A stretch of DNA of 24,000 nt from Bacteroidales bacterium (GTDB lineage: Bacteria; Bacteroidota; Bacteroidia; Bacteroidales; UBA5342): the NCBI GenBank assembly GCA_963664145.1, contig OY760906.1, forward strand, positions 881,725 through 905,724, written 5' to 3'. Both the position numbers and the translations under genes were made by a program. The notes beneath the pieces were generated by a model, which was not told the origin of the DNA, ran no database searches, and saw only the letters and a program-made list of their open reading frames with translations. Numbering within the stretch: position 1 is the first letter of the stretch; each line of letters begins with the position of its first letter. Of this stretch, positions 8,472-18,588 are shown one piece after another.

Positions 8472-8903
8472 ATGAAAAAACTATTAAATATAGAGAAAAA
8501 CGCCTCGTTAGAAGAATTAAATGCTGTAAGTAAGGGGACACTGATGGAGAGCCTTGGTATAGTTTATACGGTTGTAAATGAGGGATATGTAGAGGGTGAA
8601 ATGATGGTGAATGAACGTACCATACAGCCTTGGAAAATTTTGCATGGCGGGGCTGCGTTAGCGCTTGCTGAGACGCTTGGTGGTCTTGGTTCTCAATTGA
8701 TTATTGATTCGGAAAAATATGTTGCTGTAGGGAGTCAGGTATCCGCAAATCACGTTGGAATGTCGAAGGGTGAAAAAGTGATTGGAGAGGCCAAAATTAT
8801 TCATAAAGGAAGAAGAACGCACGTTTGGAATATTGATGTGAAGAATGAAGATGGCAGCTTGGTTTCTACTGTTCGTTTGACCAATCAAATTATTGAAAAT
8901 TGA
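8472..8903 (+). CDS. Hotdog-fold PaaI/YdiI-type thioesterase, probable 1,4-dihydroxy-2-naphthoyl-CoA hydrolase
   Basis: 143 aa. Has the ILHGGAALALAETLGG and GRRTHVWNIDV segments typical of PaaI-family thioesterases. It is the first gene of the men cluster and ends 2 nt before the menF ATG. Confidence 0.7.
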   Translation: MKKLLNIEKNASLEELNAVSKGTLMESLGIVYTVVNEGYVEGEMMVNERTIQPWKILHGGAALALAETLGGLGSQLIIDSEKYVAVGSQVSANHVGMSKGEKVIGEAKIIHKGRRTHVWNIDVKNEDGSLVSTVRLTNQIIEN

Positions 8904-8905
8904 GG

Positions 8906-10000
8906 ATGAATGCAGAGTTGAACCAATGGATAAATTCACTCTTGGGAGGAGATATGTCGTTTGCTCTTTATTTTTTGCCTGATGAATCGGAGATTGATTT
9001 TGTAGCAGGAAATTTAGAGGCTTTTGATTATGATAAAATAGATAATCTGCCGACTAATGGGTTTGTTTTTGCGCCGTATAAAGGAAGTGATAAGCAACTT
9101 TATTTTTTGATTAAAGAAGATTATTATGCTCATGGTATTGATGCTGTATTAAAGCTGAGGAGTCAAATTAATACAACGGTTAGTCTGTCTGTTAGTCAAC
9201 AAGAATCGCCAACAGAAGATGTTTCGAAAGAGCAATTTGAAACGATAGTAAAGAAGGCTGTAGAGATTATAAAATCAGATAATGTTTTGCTGAAAGTGGT
9301 GTTGTCAAGGAGTAAGACGGTGACATTGCCTGATGATTTTGATGCTGTGGCTATGTTGTACCGAATGAAAAAACGGATGCCACGTGCATTTTGTTATATG
9401 ATTTATACACCACAACAAGGATTGTGGATGGGAGCGACTCCTGAGCGTTTATTGCTGATTGAAAAGGGAAAAGCTCAGACGTATGCTTTGGCAGGGACGT
9501 TGCCGGCTAATTCCGATGATGCCTGGACGGAAAAAGAAAAGGATGAGCAGCAAATAGTGACGGATTATATTGCGGAGCGGTTAACTTCTATTGGAGTAAC
9601 GGATTATGAAGTCGATGGACAAAAAGAAGTAGTAAGTGGATCGGTAAGGCATTTGCGGTCTGTTTTTAATTTTTCTTTGTCGGAAAATAATGTTTTTACT
9701 GTGATAAAGATATTGCACCCGACTCCTGCAATTTGTGGGATGCCGCAGCAATTGGCAAATGAGTTTATTGCCGAAAATGAAAACTATTCACGAGATTATT
9801 ATTCTGGTTTTCTCGGGTCTTTGGGGGTGAACGGACAAACGTCTGTTTTTGTGAATCTGAGATGTATGAAGGTAAAAGACGAAAAGGCTGTCTTATATGT
9901 GGGAGCCGGTATTACCGAAGGGTCAATCCCCGAAAAAGAATGGCAGGAAACTGAAACCAAAGCGTTAACTTTGTTGAAGCCTTTATATGAAGTGTCTTAA
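8906..10000 (+). CDS. menF: Isochorismate synthase
   Basis: Chorismate-binding enzyme C-terminal motifs: LHPTPAICGMP, YYSGFLGS, NLRCM, VGAGITEGSIPEKEWQETE. The start is placed at ATG 8906; the track's TTG 8900 overlaps the preceding stop codon. Confidence 0.85.
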   Translation: MNAELNQWINSLLGGDMSFALYFLPDESEIDFVAGNLEAFDYDKIDNLPTNGFVFAPYKGSDKQLYFLIKEDYYAHGIDAVLKLRSQINTTVSLSVSQQESPTEDVSKEQFETIVKKAVEIIKSDNVLLKVVLSRSKTVTLPDDFDAVAMLYRMKKRMPRAFCYMIYTPQQGLWMGATPERLLLIEKGKAQTYALAGTLPANSDDAWTEKEKDEQQIVTDYIAERLTSIGVTDYEVDGQKEVVSGSVRHLRSVFNFSLSENNVFTVIKILHPTPAICGMPQQLANEFIAENENYSRDYYSGFLGSLGVNGQTSVFVNLRCMKVKDEKAVLYVGAGITEGSIPEKEWQETETKALTLLKPLYEVS

Positions 10001-10018: not shown

Positions 10019-10048
10019 ATTCCCCTTCTCGGGAGGGGCTAAGGGAGG
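10019..10048 (+). repeat. Solo relic of the hairpin-repeat right end in the menF-menD gap
   Basis: AATTCCCCTTCTCGGGAGGGGCTAAGGGAGG resembles the right end of the full copies (AATTCCCCTCTTGAGAGGGGTAAGGGGTG). It is closest to the copy-B variant GGGGCTAGG. It fills 30 of the 53 intergenic nt. Confidence 0.55.
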
Positions 10049-10053
10049 CTCTT

Positions 10054-11709
10054 ATGATATCAAATAAACAAGAAGTACAAATATTAGCGGCGTTAATGCT
10101 GAAAAAGGGCATTACAGATGTGGTGATTTCTCCCGGATCGCGCAATGCACCTTTGATAAACACCTTTGATGCATTGCAGGAATTTCGTTGTTTTAATATT
10201 GTGGATGAACGTTCTGCTGCCTTTTTTGCTATGGGGATGGCGTTGCGTTTGGGGCGTCCTGTTGCGATTACTTGTACTTCTGGTTCGGCATTACTTAATT
10301 ACGCACCTGCTGTGGCAGAGGCTTTTTATCAAAAAATTCCTTTGGTGGTATTGTCGGCAGACAGACCGCGTGAATGGATAGATCAGGGAGCCGGGCAGAC
10401 CATCCGGCAAGATAATGCTTTGGCTAATGTGGTCAAAAAAAGTATAGGCCTGACAGGTGGAATGCGCGATGAAGCGGAAGCTTGGTATAATACGCGTTTA
10501 ATCAATGAAACCCTAAATGAAGCAACGCATGTAGAATGTGGTCCGGTACATATTAATCTTCCTTTTGCAGAACCATTGTATGATACAGTAGATCAGGCAT
10601 TACCTTCGGTGAAAACTATAGATATTAGTCGTGGGCGTACGGTGTGTGATGGACAAGAGTTGGCTGTTTTGAAAGCAGAATGGAAAGCGGCACATCGAAA
10701 AATGATTCTTGTTGGTCAAATGCAGCCTAATGCAGAATTAGAAATGCTGTTAAACCGTTTATCGCAAGATGGTTCAATTGTTGTTTTGTCGGAAAAAACA
10801 TCGAATATTAAAGGAGAACGCATTTTGGATGCGATTGACAATCTGCTATTTGCCGGAGATGATTTGTTTGCTCCTGATTTGTTGATTACCGTGGGTGAAC
10901 AAATTGTTTCTAAGAAAATAAAGGCCTGGTTAAGGCAAAATAAACCCCAGTATCACTGGCATTTTTCCCCATCAGGAGAAAGTCGGGATACCTTTATGGC
11001 ATTATCGAGGGTGATAGTGGCATTTCTGCCCGAGGTGTTGTCTAAGATACCGTTGAAATCAGGTATTAACTATGCTGATGTGTGGTTGAAATTAGAAAAG
11101 GACACCAAACTTGCTCTACGTGAATATGTCAAGAAACTTGATTTTTGTGATTTTACCGTTTTTAATACCATAATGCATCAGATTCCTGACAAGTCGGTTT
11201 TGCATTTATCTAACAGTACGCCTGTGCGTTATGCACAATTGTTTCCTATGAAGGATGTTGTTTATCAGTCCAACCGTGGAACAAGTGGTATCGATGGAGT
11301 GATGTCAACAGCGGCAGGGTATGCTCATGATGATAAACGCCTTAATGTCGTGGTGATTGGTGATTTGTCATTTTTCTATGATAGTAATGCGTTGTGGAAC
11401 AGGCATCTTCCAAATAATCTGAAAGTGATTCTTATTAATAACGAAGGTGGTGGAATTTTCCGTTTTATCGATGGACCGAGTCGTATGAAAGCATCAGAAG
11501 AGCATTTTGTGTCAGTTCACCAAACAGATGCGCGCGGCATTGTTGAAGGGTTTGGATTGGCGTATCAATGTGCTACAAATCAGCAGGAATTTGAACAGGA
11601 ATTATTGCAATTGTTTAAAAGTAAAAAGGCAAGTGTTCTGGAAGTTAAAACCCCTGAGAAGAAGAATGCCGAAGTACTAAGAGGATATTTTGAGTATTTG
11701 AGCAAATAG
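10054..11709 (+). CDS. menD: 2-succinyl-5-enolpyruvyl-6-hydroxy-3-cyclohexene-1-carboxylate (SEPHCHC) synthase
   Basis: 551 aa ThDP enzyme. N-terminal VISPGSRNAPL, SNRGTSGIDG, and the ThDP-binding motif GDLSFFYDSNAL...NNEGGGIF. Operon context supports the call. Confidence 0.9.
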   Translation: MISNKQEVQILAALMLKKGITDVVISPGSRNAPLINTFDALQEFRCFNIVDERSAAFFAMGMALRLGRPVAITCTSGSALLNYAPAVAEAFYQKIPLVVLSADRPREWIDQGAGQTIRQDNALANVVKKSIGLTGGMRDEAEAWYNTRLINETLNEATHVECGPVHINLPFAEPLYDTVDQALPSVKTIDISRGRTVCDGQELAVLKAEWKAAHRKMILVGQMQPNAELEMLLNRLSQDGSIVVLSEKTSNIKGERILDAIDNLLFAGDDLFAPDLLITVGEQIVSKKIKAWLRQNKPQYHWHFSPSGESRDTFMALSRVIVAFLPEVLSKIPLKSGINYADVWLKLEKDTKLALREYVKKLDFCDFTVFNTIMHQIPDKSVLHLSNSTPVRYAQLFPMKDVVYQSNRGTSGIDGVMSTAAGYAHDDKRLNVVVIGDLSFFYDSNALWNRHLPNNLKVILINNEGGGIFRFIDGPSRMKASEEHFVSVHQTDARGIVEGFGLAYQCATNQQEFEQELLQLFKSKKASVLEVKTPEKKNAEVLRGYFEYLSK

Positions 11710-11731: not shown

Positions 11732-12085
11732 ATGACAAAAATTAAAGTATTTGATGCCGATGTAACTGTTGTGTCAATAAATGAAAATGATTTTATCTCA
11801 TTGACTGATATTGCTAAGTTTAAAACGGATGATGCTAGTGGCGTTATTACCAATTGGATGCGTAATCGCAATACGATTGAGTTTTTGGGGACATGCGAGG
11901 TTTTGTATAATCCGAATTTTAAACCCCTCGAATTCGAGGGGTTTAGAAAAGAAGCTGGTTTAAATGCTTTTACGTTATCTCCTCGAAAGTGGATTTCAAC
12001 TACAAATGCAATTGGATTTGTCGTAAAGTCAGGACGATTTGGAGGAACATATGCTCATAAAGAGCGTTTAATAAAGTTGAACTAG
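11732..12085 (+). pseudogene. KilA-N domain gene, 3'-truncated fragment
   Basis: The N-terminal 108 aa match the KilA-N family pattern as I recall it from Bacteroides proteins (ISLTDIAKFK...NWMRNRNTIEFLG...NPNFKP.EF..F..EAGLNAFTLSP.KWI..TNAIG...GR.GGTYAHK). Homology stops at AHK and the ORF ends 9 codons later, whereas full-length relatives are roughly 250-280 aa. Confidence 0.65.
11920..11945. repeat. 26-bp perfect palindrome TAAACCCCTCGAATTCGAGGGGTTTA
   Basis: Read directly from the sequence. It is self-complementary over 26 nt, and over 32 nt with one mismatch (11917-11950). It has the same CCCCTC...GAGGGG arm type as the operon hairpin repeats. It lies inside the KilA-N fragment and encodes KPLEFEGF. 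Confidence 0.95.
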
Positions 12086-12155: not shown

Positions 12156-12980
12156 ATGGAACAAAAAAGAAATTGGAAACCCATTAAAGAATATTCCGAT
12201 ATTCTATTTGAATATTGGGAAGGGATTGGAAAAATAACGATTAATCGAGAACAGGTACGCAATGCATTTCGTCCTCAGACGGTAAATCAGATTAGTGAAG
12301 CATTTCGTTTGTGTCGTGAAATGAATGAGATAAACGTTGTTGTGTTGACCGGAGCAGGCGATAAAGCGTTTTGTGCCGGAGGTGACCAAAATGTCAAAGG
12401 ACATGGTGGTTACATTGGAGATGATGGAGTGCCACGTCTTAATATTCTTGAGGTGCAGCAACAAATTCGTTCTTTGCCCAAACCCGTGATTGCTATGGTC
12501 AATGGTTTTGCGATTGGTGGAGGACATGTGTTGCACGTGGTGTGTGATATTTCTATTGCTTCAGAAAATGCGATTTTCGGACAAACCGGCCCTAAAGTAG
12601 GTAGTTTCGATGCCGGATTTGGTTCTTCGTATCTTGCTGCTGTGGTTGGACAGAAGAAAGCCCGTGAAATTTGGTTTATGTGTCGTCAGTATTCAGCTAC
12701 TGAGGCTTTGGAAATGGGATTGGTCAATAAAGTTGTGCCGTTTGATGAGCTTGAAAATGAAACTGTTGCATGGGCAAAACAAATGATGATGCACAGTCCT
12801 ATGGCGTTGCGTATGATAAAATTAGGGATGAATGCTACGCTTGACGGACAAGCTGGCATGCAGGAATTTGCAGGCAATGCCACATTATTATATTATTTGA
12901 CAGAAGAAGCACAGGAAGGGAAAAATGCCTTCTTGGAAAAACGAAAACCTGACTTTTCAAAATACCCAAAATATCCGTAG
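12156..12980 (+). CDS. menB: 1,4-dihydroxy-2-naphthoyl-CoA synthase
   Basis: 274 aa crotonase-fold protein. Segments: [43 protein letters not shown], and C-terminal [14 protein letters not shown]. Confidence 0.95.
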
Positions 12981-12981
12981 G

Positions 12982-13021
12982 GAGTTGTGAGTTGTGAATG
13001 GTGAATTGTGAATGATGAATT
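12982..13021 (+). repeat. Heptamer tandem tract (G/A)TGA(A/G)T(T/G), about 5.5 units
   Basis: GAGTT GTGAGTT GTGAATG GTGAATT GTGAATG ATGAATT, starting 2 nt after the menB stop codon. Confidence 0.8.
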
Positions 13022-13347
13022 GACTTTTAGCCCGAAGTAGTAGTAATACGTAGGGCGTTAAGAAAGTCAATGGAGCGAAGGAAGCATTCTTTTCAGATAG
13101 ACAGTTATTTCAATTATCAATTGAAATAATGATTCGTTTTTTATCATGAATTAAGCGGAGCGTATCACGAACGCCAGAAATAAACAATTGTGAGTAAAAA
13201 TGAATGACAGGGGTATGGGGGTGTCAACCCCCTAAACAGATATCTGATTAAATGATTGGGGAAGTATTATTAATACTGAATAGTTACAATAATAGTTTTT
13301 TGAATTTTTGCAATCGTTTAATTGCTAGTTGTTTAGAAGATTTTTTT

Positions 13348-13410
13348 GTAAATTGTTGATACATAACATCTAAATTTAGTCTGATGTCTAAAAGTCTAAA
13401 GAACTATCGT
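13348..13410 (+). repeat. Dispersed repeat family 2, copy 1
   Basis: GTAAATTGTTGATACATAACATCTAAATTTAGTCTGATGTCTAAAAGTCTAAAGAAC aligns with 21649-21718. They share an identical 13-mer (TAGTCTGATGTCT), a 13/16 match at the left end, and GTCTAAA-type sub-repeats. Confidence 0.4.
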
Positions 13411-13440
13411 TAAATGTAAATTATCAAATATTTAATTATA

Positions 13441-13534
13441 TTAAAACAGGCTTAGTGCGAGCATTGGCTCGTGCTTAAAATTTACAGGAGCATAGGCTCC
13501 GGTTAATAAACAGGTACGAGTCAATGCTTGTACC
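13441..13534 (+). repeat. Three tandem ~30-nt units, each TTAAWA..ACAGG linker + hairpin, in the menA leader
   Basis: Units: 13441-13474, 13475-13502, 13503-13534. Hairpins: 13454-13475 (9 bp, 2 G-U pairs), 13487-13500 (GGAGC-ATAG-GCTCC), 13513-13534 (GGTACGAG-TCAATG-CTTGTACC, 1 G-U pair). The array ends 16 nt before the menA ATG. Confidence 0.7.
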
Positions 13535-13550
13535 AAAGGTTGAGAATAAA

Positions 13551-14480
13551 ATGAAATATAATTCACCATTCAAAATCTGGATAAGAGCAGCTCGATTGCG
13601 GACGCTGCCTTTGGCGGCATCGGGAATATTGTGTGGCGTAACGTTGGCGTGGTTTCAGGGGATGTGGAGTTTGGCGTTAAGTGCTTTGGCGTTGCTTACG
13701 GCATTGTTGTTACAGATTTTGTCCAACTTTTCCAATGATTATGGAGATGCTCAAAAAGGGACAGATAATGAACATCGTGTTGGACCTCAGCGTACAGTGC
13801 AATCGGGGGCATTGAGCTTATCGCAAATGAAGCGTGGTATGGTGGTGATGGCAGTTGCTTCAATGGTTAGTGGCTTGTTGCTGATAGTGTTAGCGTTGAG
13901 GAGTTTTCCTCAAGGTGCCTGGCTGTTCTTTGCCCTATTGGGGCTTTTGTCAGTTGCAGCCGCCATTCTTTATACCGTAGGAAAGCGTGCCTATGGCTAT
14001 CATGGTTTGGGCGATGTGATGGTTTTTATTTTTTTCGGGTTGGTTAGCGTATTGGGTGCATATTACCTAAATGCGGCTTGCATAAGTATAGAAGCTGTTT
14101 TTGTTGCTATTGGGATAGGCTTGTTGAGTTCGGGAGTGCTGAATCTGAACAATATGCGCGATATTGATAATGATTTGACTTCCGGCAAAAAAACCTTAGC
14201 TGCTAAGATGGGATTCAAAAGAGCAAAAATTTACCATTCTGTCATTGTTCTTGGTGGAATCATCTGTTTTTATCCTGCCATTATGGGACTTCATCAAAAA
14301 GTATGGTTTTTTGCTATAATGCTATTGCCTATCGCCTTTTTGTCAGCAGATGTTGACCGTATTTTGAAAACAAAAAATAAAGCAACTCTTGATCCGTATT
14401 TGAAAAAATTATCAATAGGAACATTTTTTTTGTCGATAACTTTTGTGGTTGCATTGGTTATTACGCACTTGGTGTGGTGA
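13551..14480 (+). CDS. menA: 1,4-dihydroxy-2-naphthoate polyprenyltransferase
   Basis: UbiA-family membrane prenyltransferase. N-terminal WIRAARLRTLPLA. Asp-rich motifs NFSNDYGDAQKGTD and NNMRDIDNDLTSGKKTLA. Multiple TM helices. The start is moved to ATG 13551, because tracked ATG 13524 lies in the loop of hairpin 3. Confidence 0.85.
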   Translation: MKYNSPFKIWIRAARLRTLPLAASGILCGVTLAWFQGMWSLALSALALLTALLLQILSNFSNDYGDAQKGTDNEHRVGPQRTVQSGALSLSQMKRGMVVMAVASMVSGLLLIVLALRSFPQGAWLFFALLGLLSVAAAILYTVGKRAYGYHGLGDVMVFIFFGLVSVLGAYYLNAACISIEAVFVAIGIGLLSSGVLNLNNMRDIDNDLTSGKKTLAAKMGFKRAKIYHSVIVLGGIICFYPAIMGLHQKVWFFAIMLLPIAFLSADVDRILKTKNKATLDPYLKKLSIGTFFLSITFVVALVITHLVW

Positions 14481-14491
14481 TAATTGTGAAA

Positions 14492-14670
14492 GAACACACC
14501 CTCTGCCCCTCTCGAGACTTCGGCGTGAGCTCAGTCGAACGAGGGAGTCTTGAGAGGGGAGTCTGTTTGGTGCAAAATAAAATTTTGGGCGAATTTTGAA
14601 AATATGTTTAAATGCCCCCAAAGAAGCATGACGAGTCCAATTCCCCTCTTGAGAGGGGTAAGGGGTGTGT
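14492..14670 (+). repeat. Hairpin-ended inverted-repeat element, copy A (with 31-nt nested insert)
   Basis: The left end GAACACACCCTCTGCCCCTCTCGAGA is separated from its matching arm CTTGAGAGGGGAGT by the 31-nt insert. The right end is ATTCCCCTCTTGAGAGGGGTAAGGGGTGTGT. The two ends are inverse complements of each other. The insert occupies 14518-14548, within the left hairpin. Confidence 0.9.
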
Positions 14671-14717
14671 ATTAAGACGAAGCAAATCACTTTTTTAAGG
14701 AAAAGTAATACAAAATA

Positions 14718-15086
14718 ATGCGAAAAATTATTCCATATAAACCATATTTGAAGGCTTATGCCCGCAAATTAAGGAATAATAGTACGTTGAGTGAGATTGT
14801 TTTATGGAGGGAGTTGGGCAGTAAAAAATTCTATGGATATCGGTTTATTAGGCAAAAACCGTTGTTAGATTATATAGTTGATTTCTATTGTTATGAATTG
14901 GAATTAGTTATAGAGTTAGATGGATATTCGCATGAGTTAATAGAGATTCAAGATAAGGATAAAAACAAAGAAGAAAGTTTGAAGGAAGCAGGCTTGCATA
15001 TTTTAAGATTTACGGATGAAGAAGTTTTTAAAGATATGGCTAATGTGTTGTTGGTGATTAAGGATTATATTGATAATTATGAATGA
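14718..15086 (+). CDS. DUF559 endonuclease-domain protein (Vsr-like PD-(D/E)xK fold)
   Basis: 122 aa matching the DUF559 pattern: ARKLRNNSTLSE..LW..L....F.G..F.RQ.P...YIVDFYC.E..LVIELDG..H...........LKEAGLHILRF...EV. The acidic core residues (D of VDF; E and D of IELDG) are present. The stop TGA (15084-15086) overlaps the first bases of repeat copy B. Confidence 0.8.
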   Translation: MRKIIPYKPYLKAYARKLRNNSTLSEIVLWRELGSKKFYGYRFIRQKPLLDYIVDFYCYELELVIELDGYSHELIEIQDKDKNKEESLKEAGLHILRFTDEEVFKDMANVLLVIKDYIDNYE

Positions 15087-15253
15087 ACACACCCCCTGCC
15101 CCTCTCGAGACTTCGGCGTGAGCTCAGTCGAACGAGGGAGTTTGTAAAGAGCAAAATAGAGTATTGAGGGAATTTTGAATATAGGTTTTGAAAGAACTCA
15201 AAGAAATATGATGAGTCCAGCATTCCCCTCTCGAGAGGGGCTAGGTGATGTGT
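15085..15253 (+). repeat. Hairpin-ended inverted-repeat element, copy B (31-nt insert, degenerate right end)
   Basis: Shares the left end and the same insert (15111-15141) with copy A. Right hairpin CCCCTCTCGAGAGGGG at 15225-15240. The terminal GGGGCTAGGTGATGTGT is more diverged than in the other copies. Confidence 0.9.
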
Positions 15254-15323
15254 CTTAACAAGTAACAGTATCCTTCAAAATACAATAGAGAGAAATAGTG
15301 TGTTATATTGTTTTAATTAAAAA

Positions 15324-16352
15324 ATGTTAAAAGCAAGCGTAAACAAATATCAACTCAAATTTAAACGACCTGCGGGAACGTCGCGAGGTGTGTATCGTAC
15401 CCGTGACAGTTGGATTGTGACTCTTTGGGATACAAAACAGCCCAATGTGAAGGGAGTAGGAGAATGTGCTCCATTACCTGATTTGAGTTGTGATTTTGAT
15501 GCTAATTATGAAGATAAAATAAAAGAAGTTTGTGCTTCTGTTTCAGATATAGAATACTGGTTGGATGACGGTTTGATGGATTATCCGTCTATTCGTTTTG
15601 GGTTTGAAACCGCTTTTTTAGACTTCAAAAACGGTGGGAATGGGCTTCTTTTTGACACCCCATTTGTACACGAGAAGGAAGGGATATTAATCAACGGCTT
15701 GATATGGATGGGGAATCCCAACTATATGCGAGAACAAATTCAACAAAAATTAGAGCAAGGATTTCATTGTATTAAATTGAAGATTGGTGCCAATGATATT
15801 GAAGATGAAATGCAGATTTTGCAGTCGTTGAGAAAGGAATTTCCTTCTGATCGTCTTGAATTACGAGTGGATGCTAATGGAGCATTTTCTGTGGATGACG
15901 CTCCCAAGGTATTAGAGTATCTTGCAGCTATGCAGGTGCATTCCATAGAGCAACCCATACGGCAGAAACAACAGGATGAAATGGCAGCTTTGTGTAAGCA
16001 GACTCCTATTCCTATTGCGTTGGATGAGGAACTAATAGGGGTAAATGCAAAAGAAGAAAAGACTGCTCTTTTGGATAATATAAAACCTCAATATATTATT
16101 CTGAAACCATCGTTACATGGAGGGATTGCCGGATGCTTGGAGTGGATTGATATTGCAAAAGAAAGGCAAATAGGTTGGTGGATAACATCTGCTTTGGAAT
16201 CAAATATAGGATTGAATGCCATAGCGCAGTGGACGGCATCATTAGGAGTGACTATTCCTCAGGGCTTAGGAACAGGACTACTTTTTACTAATAATTTTGA
16301 ATCGCCGTTGTACATTGAAGGGGATAGATTGTATCATCGTGAGAGTTTTTAA
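15324..16352 (+). CDS. menC: o-succinylbenzoate synthase (enolase superfamily)
   Basis: 342 aa MR/MLE-type protein. Segments: CIKLKIG, ELRVDANGAF, SIEQP, ALDEEL, IILKPSLHGG. Operon context supports the call. Confidence 0.85.
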   Translation: MLKASVNKYQLKFKRPAGTSRGVYRTRDSWIVTLWDTKQPNVKGVGECAPLPDLSCDFDANYEDKIKEVCASVSDIEYWLDDGLMDYPSIRFGFETAFLDFKNGGNGLLFDTPFVHEKEGILINGLIWMGNPNYMREQIQQKLEQGFHCIKLKIGANDIEDEMQILQSLRKEFPSDRLELRVDANGAFSVDDAPKVLEYLAAMQVHSIEQPIRQKQQDEMAALCKQTPIPIALDEELIGVNAKEEKTALLDNIKPQYIILKPSLHGGIAGCLEWIDIAKERQIGWWITSALESNIGLNAIAQWTASLGVTIPQGLGTGLLFTNNFESPLYIEGDRLYHRESF

Positions 16353-16353
16353 T

Positions 16354-16494
16354 GAACACACCCCAGCCCCTCTCAAGAGGGGAGTTTGTTTAGAGCAAAA
16401 TAAAGTTCTGAGGGAATTTTGATAACAGGTTTTGAAAGAACCCAAAGAAGCCTGACGAGTCCAATTCCCCTCTAGAGAGGGGTAAGGGGTGTGT
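16354..16494 (+). repeat. Hairpin-ended inverted-repeat element, copy C (141 bp, no insert)
   Basis: Starts 1 nt after the menC TAA stop. Hairpins CCCCTCTCAAGAGGGG (16367-16382) and CCCCTCTAGAGAGGGG (16467-16482). By manual alignment it differs from copy D at about a dozen positions. Confidence 0.95.
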
Positions 16495-16511
16495 TTTGAG
16501 ACGAAGCAAAA

Positions 16512-16606
16512 TTTGAAGGAAGCAGGCTTGCATAATTAAAAAGAAGTATTGAAAGATATGGATGGTGTGTTGTAAGTGGTTTAGGACTAGGTTGATAACT
16601 GTGGGT
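16512..16606 (+). pseudogene. DUF559 gene remnant (3' ~100 nt only)
   Basis: TTTGAAGGAAGCAGGCTTGCATA (16512-16534) is identical to 14978-15000 of the intact gene. The rest aligns with the gene's 3' end, with substitutions and a 12-nt gap, up to the junction ..TGATAACTGTGGGT|GAACAC (intact gene: TGATAATTATGAAT|GAACAC). There is no start codon and no ORF. Confidence 0.8.
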
Positions 16607-16748
16607 GAACACACCCCCAGCCCCTCTCGAGAGGGGAGTCTGTTTGGTGCAAAATAAAGTTTTGAGGGAATATTGATAACAGGTTTTGAAAAAAACCAAA
16701 GAAGCATGACGAGTCCAATTCCCCTCTTGAGAGGGGTTAGGGGTGTGT
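16607..16748 (+). repeat. Hairpin-ended inverted-repeat element, copy D (142 bp, no insert)
   Basis: Hairpins CCCCTCTCGAGAGGGG (16621-16636) and CCCCTCTTGAGAGGGG (16721-16736). Ends 38 nt before the menE ATG. Confidence 0.95.
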
Positions 16749-16786: not shown

Positions 16787-17827
16787 ATGTCATATACCAT
16801 TAATCACATAAGTTATGCGCAGAACGAATTATTAGACGAAGCGCAACGCATCTTACAATCAGGTGCTCCCAAGTGGGAAAAAGACGTATGGACATTTATT
16901 GCCGTGTGGTTTGATGACAAGGAGACTGTTCAACTTAAAACATCGGGCAGTACAGGTGAGCCAAAGGTTATTGATGTAGAGAAAAAATATTTGCGTAATA
17001 GTGCACGTATGACTTTGGATTTTCTGAATCTGAAAAAAGGCAATACAGCATTATTGTGCTTGTCGGCGCAGTATATTGCAGGGAAAATGATGATTGTGAG
17101 AGCTTTTGAAGGTGATTTGGATTTGCTTATTCAAGAGCCGTCAGGAAATCCGTTGAAGTCCTGTAACGAAAAGCTTAAATTCGTGGCGTTAGTACCTCTG
17201 CAAGTGGAGAGAATGCTGAATGAGAACGGAGTAGAAGCGGTAGAACGAATTGATCAGATTATTATTGGTGGTGCGGCTGTTGGTGGACAATTGTTGCAGC
17301 AGATTAAAGGATTAGAAAACATGGTTTGGGCAACATACGGCATGACAGAAACGGTTTCGCACGTCGCGATGAAGCGGCTATCGGGAGAATGTGTTTCAGA
17401 TTATTTTTATCCTATGACCGGTGTGACTTTTAGTGCAGATGAGCGGGGATGTTTGCAAATTGATGCACCACATTTGTGTGCAGATAGGGTGGTGACCAAT
17501 GACATTGTGGAATTTGACAAAAACAACGGATTTCGTTTTATTGGGCGTTATGATAATGTGATAAATTCCGGAGGGGTAAAAATATCACCCGAATCTGTTG
17601 AACAAAAGATAACTCATTTTATTAAAGAACGTTTTATTATTTCATCGGTAGAAGATGAGCATTTAGGGCAAAAAGTAGTCTTGATAATAGAAGGGAAAAG
17701 TGAATGTTTTGATAAAAACGAATTATTATCGATAATAAAAACAGTATTACTCCCTTATGAGTGCCCAAAAGATGTTTACTTTGTCGGAGCGTTTGAAGAA
17801 ACGGGGAGTGGAAAGGTGAGGAGGTAA
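16787..17827 (+). CDS. menE: o-succinylbenzoate-CoA ligase (short ANL-family adenylating enzyme)
   Basis: AMP-binding P-loop TSGSTGEPKVI, YGMTET, and GRYDNVINSGGVKISPESVE. The P-loop sits at residue ~52, giving a short N-terminal domain. I recall this as common in Bacteroidota MenE proteins but have not verified it. Last gene of the men cluster. Confidence 0.8.
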   Translation: MSYTINHISYAQNELLDEAQRILQSGAPKWEKDVWTFIAVWFDDKETVQLKTSGSTGEPKVIDVEKKYLRNSARMTLDFLNLKKGNTALLCLSAQYIAGKMMIVRAFEGDLDLLIQEPSGNPLKSCNEKLKFVALVPLQVERMLNENGVEAVERIDQIIIGGAAVGGQLLQQIKGLENMVWATYGMTETVSHVAMKRLSGECVSDYFYPMTGVTFSADERGCLQIDAPHLCADRVVTNDIVEFDKNNGFRFIGRYDNVINSGGVKISPESVEQKITHFIKERFIISSVEDEHLGQKVVLIIEGKSECFDKNELLSIIKTVLLPYECPKDVYFVGAFEETGSGKVRR

Positions 17828-17896: not shown

Positions 17897-18205
17897 ATGG
17901 AAAAAATACCGATTATATCCCTGATTAAAGAAAAGATACACTCTATTCAGCCTGATGCAGAGGTAGTTCTTTATGGCTCTTATGCAAGGGGAGATTATCG
18001 TGTGGATTCAGATATTGATGTTTTGATCTTGTTGAAACAAACAAAAATTAAACGTGAATTAGAAAAGCAGTTGACCTATTCGCTTTATGATTTAGAATTG
18101 GAATACGGAAAGATTATTAGTCCGATAGTTTATCCAAAAAGCAAATGGGGGAAAATGGTGACACCTTTTTATGAAAATGTTCAAAAAGAGGGGGTTCGAT
18201 TATGA
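17897..18205 (+). CDS. Minimal nucleotidyltransferase (MNT) antitoxin-type protein
   Basis: 102 aa with the GSYARGDYRVDSDIDVLIL motif (GSxxRG...DxD) of pol-beta-superfamily minimal NTases. Confidence 0.85.
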   Translation: MEKIPIISLIKEKIHSIQPDAEVVLYGSYARGDYRVDSDIDVLILLKQTKIKRELEKQLTYSLYDLELEYGKIISPIVYPKSKWGKMVTPFYENVQKEGVRL

Positions 18206-18588
18206 CTAACGAGGAGCGTAAGGTTTGGGTTGACTATAGATTGGAACGGGCGTTGTCGACTCTGAAAGAAGTTGACCTGTTGGTTGAAAATCAGATGTAT
18301 AATGCTGCTGTAAACCGTATGTATTATGCCTGTTATTATGCTGTTACGGCATTATTACTTGCAAATAAAATTGAAATAAAAACCCACGCAGGTGCTAGAC
18401 AGCGTTTTGGTCAGCATTTTGTAAAGAATAGAAAAATTGAAGTAGAATTGGGTAAGTTTTATTCTGAGATTTTTACCAAAAGACAATCAGGAGATTATGA
18501 GGATATGATAGTTTTCTCCGAAGATGATGTAAAAGGTTTATTACCCAATGCGATAAAATTAATAAATGCGATAGAAAAACTTTTATAG
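18202..18588 (+). CDS. HEPN domain protein (toxin-type RNase partner of the MNT)
   Basis: 128 aa, all-helical. The segment HAGARQRFGQHF contains an R-x(4-6)-H type HEPN motif. It overlaps the NTase gene by 4 nt (ATGA). Confidence 0.85.
   Translation: MTNEERKVWVDYRLERALSTLKEVDLLVENQMYNAAVNRMYYACYYAVTALLLANKIEIKTHAGARQRFGQHFVKNRKIEVELGKFYSEIFTKRQSGDYEDMIVFSEDDVKGLLPNAIKLINAIEKLL

Follow-up and report, generated by a model that had tools for sequence, protein, structure and literature searches.

A DUF559 nuclease gene between triplex-type inverted repeats in a Bacteroidales men operon: a candidate gene-repeat partnership

BoxC, PIT (potential intrastrand triplex) and TMECO motifs have been known in Escherichia coli since the 1990s, are present in hundreds of genomes and serve as markers of unstable loci, and we know of no origin, function or associated gene that has been found for them so far. 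To our knowledge, no role has been assigned to DUF559 either, although it is a very large protein family. Here, we describe a 24,000-nt stretch of a Bacteroidales genome (GenBank assembly GCA_963664145.1, contig OY760906.1, positions 881,725 to 905,724; hereafter the window) in which a small DUF559 gene of the men operon lies between inverted structured repeats that also occur without it, and we suggest DUF559 as the first candidate partner enzyme for the long-orphan BoxC/triplex repeats.

Holder et al. (2015, PMC4666352) describe BoxC, PIT elements and TMECO from E. coli and from many other bacteria, and also cite earlier work of Bachellier, Hoyne and Maher. There are 23 TMECO in MG1655, loop 2 is often TTA and inverted pairs are common; TMECO stalls polymerase in vitro and is a marker of unstable loci, and the 2015 survey saw no mobility-related gene near the motifs and no mobility function (PMC4666352). 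In the window, the initial annotation had described each end of the repeats as a hairpin and had not recognized the ends as this described class. We found that the hairpin is present and that each end also has a C-box and a 3-nt loop, so that on the G-rich strand the motif reads CCCCTCT, 2 nt, AGAGGGG, 3 nt (TAA, TTA or CTA) and GGGGTGTGT. The last block mirrors the purine arm, with A answered by T, which is the rule of a purine-motif intrastrand triplex, and the window motifs have 7/7 triads (G.G-C, T.A-T or A.A-T). They show all three blocks of the class, a pyrimidine stem, a purine stem and a mirroring purine-rich block, joined by short loops. Judged by this arrangement, the window ends have BoxC/PIT/TMECO architecture in a different sequence family: they do not match the TMECO consensus (CCCTCNCCC N3-6 GGGNGAGGG N3 GGGNGAGGG), which has a 9-nt stem, whereas the window stems are 7 nt long (CCCCTCT/AGAGGGG, with the box given above). 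Like BoxC/PIT/TMECO, the window motifs are intergenic, multi-copy, frequently paired in inverse orientation and more variable in the loops than in the stems, and in E. coli the DUF559 gene ycjD is also physically joined to such motifs; unlike them, the window doublets have a conserved core of ~84 nt. The window matches no Rfam family.

Repeat copies and DUF559 units in the men operon

Four copies of the repeat, A to D, lie in the same orientation (Table 1), as the initial annotation had reported. They are ~141-179 nt long, and its further observations also held: the ends (~30 nt each) are inverse-complementary, they are more conserved than the core (invariant columns 85-88% in the ends as compared to 64% in the core), and the stems are fixed while the loops vary (loop centers CG, TG, CA and AG). 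Two of the copies fold into long hairpins, with -32.7 kcal/mol for copy C (z = -7.1) and -32.1 kcal/mol for copy D (z = -6.3). A 16-nt palindrome, CCCCTCTnnAGAGGGG, is present in 6 exact copies and 1 variant in the 24 kb, as compared to 0.02 in shuffled sequences. Copies C and D are 90% identical. Copies A and B are longer than C and D because of an insertion common to both (CTTCGGCGTGAGCTCAGTCGAACG...), which splits the left hairpin within loop 1, and at the right end of copy B the outer box is degenerate (GGTGATGTGT). At three other loci (L146, L157 and L183), small hairpins are nested in loop 1 or loop 2 of the motif, so the motif loops seem to tolerate or attract insertions.

The copies are located in two spacers of the men operon, menA-menC and menC-menE, and both spacers follow the same plan of repeat, leader, DUF559 (intact or remnant) and repeat. 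The first ~16 nt of the leader upstream of the intact gene (TTAAGACGAAGCAAAT) are found again 3' of copies C and D. The copies abut stop codons as had been described: the DUF559 TGA overlaps the start of copy B, TGAACAC stands immediately 3' of the menC TAA, and 11 nt separate the menA TGA from the start of copy A. Two other claims had to be revised. DUF559 had been called the sole intact gene bracketed by copies, but menC is likewise bracketed, by copies B and C. It had also been taken as the one nuclease gene among the repeats, but there are two gene copies, one of them decayed: the spacer between copies C and D contains a remnant that is ~79% identical to the DUF559 3' end and has a 12-nt deletion and in-frame stop codons, from which we conclude that there were originally two repeat-DUF559-repeat units. 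A 14-16-nt similarity upstream of copies A and C could be a further trace of DUF559; we keep it as suggestive only, because a systematic search for DUF559 3' remnants beside gene-less motifs gave only a few further cases.

The men operons of five syntenic relatives (65-80% nucleotide identity) are compact, with a menA-menC spacer of 22-43 nt and with menC and menE genes that overlap or are separated by a gap of up to ~58 nt, and we found neither DUF559 nor the motif in the 77 kb of these five relatives. This comparison points to the window units being lineage-specific insertions. The comparison of orthologous men operons had been proposed in order to define the exact ends as well; the insertions are absent from all five relatives, which are too diverged for the spacers to align and the ends to be placed. 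Around 30 gene-bearing units at other loci, we found no consistent direct repeat of the kind expected from target-site duplication.

The identity of the 122-aa protein as DUF559 was confirmed (PF04480, E = 2e-30, 105.3 bits as compared to a cutoff of 20.6); it also matches NF007294 with E = 1e-18, which is below the equivalog cutoff, and the DUF559 structure 3hrl with E = 2.6e-12. Residues D55, E66, D68 and H72 do not vary among the homologues compared (30 and 35). An AlphaFold2 model (pLDDT 89.7) has a Vsr-type fold whose best match in the Protein Data Bank (PDB) is again 3hrl, followed by the catalytic domain of the homing endonuclease I-Bth0305I (3r3p; Foldseek E = 3e-4, TM 0.66/0.80) and then, more weakly, by Vsr (1cw0, 1vsr). 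With these residues and this modeled fold, the window protein looks like an active nuclease. Another DUF559 protein, VsrA of Caulobacter, brings about DNA damage and an SOS response in vivo (PMC12907096). We rejected two other readings of the gene. PADLOC gave weak matches only (DpdF, 2e-4; mREase, 6e-3) for a defence system, and Vsr-type repair with a linked cytosine methylase is not what we see, as the window has no methylase gene and the motifs share no CCWGG-type site.

Linkage and covariation of motif and gene

When we scanned for exact copies of the motif in one genome per species, we found at least 120 loci, and the counts per genome are lower bounds. Among the loci listed, most are from Bacteroidota and some from metagenome-assembled genomes (MAGs) of other phyla; 13 of the 120 encode DUF559, and at ~10 of these the gene directly adjoins the motif and does so in a single orientation, with the fixed arrangement motif(-), short leader, gene, motif(+). 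Five of the six (-,+) motif pairs that lie 390-480 nt apart enclose DUF559, and DUF559 is the only family of open reading frames (ORFs) that recurs beside the motif. Starting from the gene, we collected 80 metagenomic DUF559 loci (45-62% identity) and looked for the motif in the expected orientation. Box and hairpin are present within 150 nt upstream of DUF559 in 52/78 loci and within 100 nt downstream in 44/74, and 63/72 related DUF559 loci have the motif on at least one flank, against a background of ~0.011 per 150 nt. At the C-terminus of many DUF559 homologues there is a tail such as ...EKHTPNPSQEG, an in-frame translation of the motif. The linkage of gene and motif is specific and ancient, and these counts show that the repeat-gene-repeat layout is general to this DUF559 clade and no accident of the window locus. 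The initial annotation had proposed a layout like that of REPIN elements (doublets of repetitive extragenic palindromic, or REP, sequences) and their RAYT (REP-associated tyrosine transposase), with a nuclease gene between inverted structured repeats that also occur gene-less, and this layout is borne out. Kinship in the sense of family membership is not: the defining Y1 HUH transposase (PF01797, Y1_Tnp) was not found beside any motif in 1.2 Mb of sequence from loci with the motif or with DUF559. A RAYT as the enzyme of the repeats was rejected on the same ground, together with the finding that the Y1_Tnp gene of one syntenic relative, L201, has hairpins of its own that differ from the motif.

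Some motifs lie outside this arrangement. Single motifs stand in frame inside large restriction-modification or methylase-like ORFs (L077 5815-5842, L062, L081 and L115), where they add peptides such as LHTPGPSQEGRYA, and the gene region of L077 also has a DUF559 unit. Tandem arrays were seen with a 100-nt period (L102 7481-7708) and, on an IMG/VR contig (L219 1929-6054), as (+,-) doublets with a period of ~230 nt. Near-identical doublets (L005, L112 and others) occur in MAGs assigned to Patescibacteria, Planctomycetota, Nitrospirota and Desulfobacterota, in which horizontal transfer and bin contamination are not told apart.

The sequence of the motif varies by DUF559 clade, for example CCCCTCC/GGAGGGG with GGGGTGGGT, CCCCCTT/AAGGGGG with GGGGGTTGT or GGGGGATGT, and GTCCCCT/AGGGGAC with GGGGTGT. 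The two flanks of one gene are 88% identical, as compared to 73% between loci, and similarity of the motif tracks similarity of the protein (Mantel r = 0.49, reached in 0/2000 permutations). Among 52 dereplicated motifs that flank DUF559, 47 have 7/7 triads, and the mean over all 52 is 6.79, as compared to 5.26 with a shuffled third strand and 6.18 with the third strand from a locus with a different arm. At the level of sequence, these comparisons show the box covarying with the hairpin arm by purine-motif triplex rules. With proteins this far diverged, unconstrained flanks would be randomized. That both ends and the box change in concert argues for constraint, and for a structure that would be recognized.

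The gene may also be absent from the bracket, or present in part. Gene-less (-,+) brackets with spacers of 13-37 nt are found at nine loci, none of them at orthologous sites, and DUF559 3' remnants joined to the (+) motif are found in the window, at L094, L121 and L024, and in E. coli. The recurrence of such remnants at the (+) motif would fit conversion tracts that start at the motif. These observations bear on the main rival explanation, that DUF559 is a free-standing homing-type selfish gene that invades pre-existing doublets by cutting their short spacer; the repeats would then spread otherwise, by replication slippage or another enzyme, and DUF559 would do nothing for the gene-less copies. 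The nearest characterized fold is indeed the catalytic domain of a homing endonuclease, the gene is always within a (-)...(+) bracket that also exists without it at the nine loci, and the remnants beside intact genes (window, L094, L121 and E. coli) could reflect repeated invasion or co-conversion tracts. The lack of a target-site duplication and the presence of motif-rich viral contigs without DUF559 also agree with this explanation. However, DUF559 lacks the extra DNA-binding domain of I-Bth0305I, and the distribution of the gene in E. coli, described below, argues against homing; we consider this explanation unlikely.

ycjD and BoxC in Enterobacteriaceae

In E. coli K-12, the ORF of the DUF559 gene ycjD ends inside a degenerate BoxC, and 3' of the gene there is a duplicated remnant of the ycjD 3' end, followed by TMECO no. 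9 (Table 1 of Holder et al.) ~170 nt downstream. More than 80 of the best 120 YcjD homologues end in LPSPRPSP; here the ORF runs in frame into a type-B TMECO and stops in loop 1 of the TMECO. Named matches among these best 120 come from Escherichia, Shigella, Enterobacter, Klebsiella, Kluyvera and relatives. In Enterobacter asburiae, which has the highest TMECO count (143; Holder et al., PMC4666352), the YcjD homologue (L212 3001-3430) has a hemN-like gene on one side and a DUF2884 gene on the other and is not at the E. coli sapF-fabI site; again the gene stops within loop 1 of a type-B TMECO, and an inverted type-A TMECO follows 10 nt later. The pairing of E. coli and Enterobacter YcjD with BoxC/TMECO is an independent replicate of the pairing seen in the window. 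No Salmonella homologue is among the best 120 matches, and Salmonella is reported to be without TMECO (PMC4666352); this joint absence is no more than suggestive.

All 5426 complete E. coli genomes have BoxC, at 2-35 places, and 3378 of them have ycjD (median 1 place per genome, maximum 2). In an evenly spaced sample, 37/37 genomes with ycjD have 15-32 further BoxC places, whereas 13/22 genomes without ycjD have 12 or fewer (Fisher p = 2e-8, not phylogenetically corrected). At the ycjD site, upstream of fabI, the ycjD-less strains ST131 (L210) and O157:H7 (L211) have genes for a TetR regulator and RND-type efflux. In one enterotoxigenic strain (match H193), the insertion sequence IS1 is inside ycjD. 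Against homing, across the 5426 genomes ycjD is at one fixed locus and never in the other ~17 BoxC sites, and strains that lack it have a different island at the site and not an empty doublet. Nor does homing predict that low BoxC counts are confined to genomes without ycjD, as they are in the sample.

A second rival explanation is a host function. The motifs could be structural or genome-organizing elements that fold and stall replication, DUF559 a structure-specific repair nuclease, and nothing mobile, with the gene kept beside one motif for cis-regulation or co-inheritance. The Vsr family has its ancestry in repair, and the Caulobacter DUF559 protein VsrA is SOS-induced (PMC12907096); TMECO, as stated above, stalls polymerase and marks unstable loci, and the gene is single-copy in Enterobacteriaceae. 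Against this, 38% of E. coli genomes do without ycjD and the gene is at different loci in E. coli and Enterobacter, while identical motifs are found across phyla and in viral contigs, and the window units are lineage-specific insertions in an essential operon, two of which are present and one of which is decaying. We regard a host function as less likely than homing, and quite improbable.

Operon context, proposed mechanism and known systems

The features of the window are listed in Table 1.

Table 1. Repeat copies, motifs, DUF559 genes and men genes in the window
Feature	Position	Strand	Description
Copy A	14492-14670	+	two inverted triplex-type motifs around ~84-nt core
Copy A left motif	14494-14517; 3' arm 14556-14562	+	38-nt insertion at 14518-14555, before the 3' arm
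Copy A right motif	14641-14670	+	TTCCCCTCTTGAGAGGGGTAAGGGGTGTGT
Leader	14671-14717	+	from copy A right motif to DUF559 start codon
DUF559 gene	14718-15086	+	Vsr-like PD-(D/E)xK, 122 aa; stop codon overlaps first bases of copy B
Copy B	15085-15253	+	left motif 15087-15110, right motif 15223-15253
Copy B left motif loop insertion	15111-15134	+	24 nt; same insertion as in copy A
Copy C	16354-16494	+	uninterrupted doublet; left motif 16356-16384, right motif 16465-16494
Decayed second DUF559, 3' end	16508-16606	+	spacer between copies C and D; homologous to 14974-15086
Copy D	16607-16748	+	uninterrupted doublet; left motif 16609-16638, right motif 16719-16748
Solo variant motif	10020-10051	+	TTCCCCTTCTCGGGAGGGGCTAAGGGAGGCTC; menF-menD spacer, just upstream of menD start
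menF	8900-10000		
menD	10054-11709		
menB	12156-12980		
menA	13524-14480		
menC	15324-16352		
menE	16787-17827		

Other genes have entered the same operon. An ORF with a KilA-N domain (11732-12085; Pfam E = 1.4e-11) is inserted between menD and menB, matches the PADLOC candidate PDC-S22 (E = 3.8e-47) and is absent from the five syntenic relatives. An MNT-like nucleotidyltransferase and HEPN pair of toxin-antitoxin or defence type (17897-18588) is inserted between menE and a U32 peptidase gene, and the relatives are without it. The menB-menA spacer (12981-13523, 544 nt) is gene-less and has short repeats of GTGAAT type and small hairpins; at the same junction in L201 (8822-9873), the Y1_Tnp (RAYT/IS200-like) gene lies between AAGCCCnnnGGGCTT hairpins, and the window spacer may be the scar of an element of this type.

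That small accessory genes such as KilA-N and MNT/HEPN accumulate in this operon, and that some motifs look terminator-like in a simple scan, would agree with a third explanation, in which the hairpins are terminators or insulators, boundaries of expression or of a cassette, that move together with a small accessory or defence-type gene and have no enzymatic relation to its protein. However, earlier tests (cited in PMC4666352) showed neither promoter nor terminator activity for PIT/BoxC, and the KilA-N and MNT/HEPN insertions themselves are without such motifs. A terminator needs neither an inverted twin upstream nor a mirror box that covaries by triplex rules, nor an ORF that reads into the motif, which we saw in two phyla. 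This is, like a host role in repair, less likely than a homing-type gene, and in our view very improbable.

Taken together, these data partly support the REPIN/RAYT-like reading, as a layout and a specific gene-repeat partnership and not as family membership. The explanation that we favor, with little more than even confidence, is that the repeat copies are non-autonomous, REPIN- or MITE-like (miniature inverted-repeat transposable element) doublets of a ~30-nt structured motif and that DUF559 forms the coding core of this element family. Its conserved unit would consist of motif(-), short leader, DUF559 and motif(+), ~410-520 nt in all, with the 3' end of DUF559 running into the downstream motif, and the 141-179-nt copies would be gene-less doublets of the same motifs. 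Two such units would have entered the menA-menC and menC-menE spacers, and the second would have lost most of its gene. We infer that DUF559 binds and cleaves the motif and that copying is repair-mediated: DUF559 would be a Mg-dependent nuclease that recognizes its own type of motif and nicks or cuts the DNA at it, repair of the break would use another copy with the motif as its template, and this copying would spread and homogenize the motifs in trans, sometimes carrying along the gene or only its 3' end. More tentatively, and with rather less than even confidence, we propose that DUF559 proteins are the cognate enzymes of BoxC/PIT/triplex-motif repeats across Bacteroidota and Proteobacteria, matched to them clade by clade, and that they read the fold of hairpin plus third strand and drive spread, homogenization and local instability by break-induced copying.

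Several points weigh against this explanation. Strand transfer is beyond a 122-aa PD-(D/E)xK nuclease, which means that any mobility has to come from the repair machinery of the host. Part of the correlation between clade and motif is simple co-inheritance, because linked DNA co-diverges with its gene. One or two events may underlie the association of BoxC with ycjD in E. coli; BoxC is low in B2 strains, while O157:H7, which is also without ycjD, keeps ~15 copies. Most E. coli copies are at fixed loci and are mostly decaying (Holder et al., PMC4666352), which argues against current activity, and 31 motif-bearing viral or prophage stretches (263 kb) are without DUF559.

The class of motif and the protein family are each known, and the link between DUF559 and the repeats is undescribed in the literature that we found: no paper links DUF559 to repeats of BoxC/PIT/TMECO type. 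The pairing makes the questions of what the repeats and the family do directly testable in E. coli K-12, which has ycjD and ~20 BoxC copies. It also accounts, in annotation, for the P/S/Q/E/G-rich tails on DUF559 proteins, for HTPxPSQEG-type peptides in other ORFs and for the swollen spacers of the men operon.

Among described proteins, YcjD of E. coli and NGO0050 (PDB 3hrl) are of the same DUF559 family as the window protein; both are annotated as of unknown function, and the literature found records no repeat association for either. Vsr and I-Bth0305I have the catalytic fold in common with DUF559 and are likewise small selfish or repair nucleases that act at a specific DNA site. Unlike them, DUF559 has neither an intron or intein host nor an extra DNA-binding domain nor a linked cytosine methyltransferase, and its presumed target is a repeated structured motif and not a unique gene site (I-Bth0305I) or a T:G mismatch (Vsr). 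Like MITEs derived from insertion sequences, the copies are small and intergenic, have terminal inverted repeats, fold into long hairpins and appear as gene-less derivatives of a gene-bearing unit. In contrast to such MITEs, they have no target-site duplication (30 units) and no DDE or other transposase beside the motif, and their ends are self-structured motifs that are also found solo and in both polarities.

REPIN/RAYT is similar in that a small enzyme gene is flanked by inverted copies of a short palindrome with a conserved adjacent "head", that inverted doublets are the dispersed unit, that the type of repeat is matched to the enzyme clade and that there are many gene-less copies per gene (~20 BoxC per ycjD in E. 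coli). The gene is single-copy and vertically inherited in REPIN/RAYT systems; ycjD has a median of 1 place per genome, and the window has one intact and one decayed gene within 2 kb. The differences are in the enzyme and in the repeat: RAYT is a Y1 HUH transposase whereas DUF559 is a Vsr-like PD-(D/E)xK nuclease, and REP is a simple hairpin headed by GTAG or CGTC whereas the window motif is mirror-symmetric and of triplex type. If our explanation is correct, DUF559 and its motifs would be a second kind of enzyme-repeat partnership beside RAYT and REP, possibly one that reads non-B DNA, and the same kind of gene-repeat symbiosis would exist with another enzyme fold and another DNA structure.

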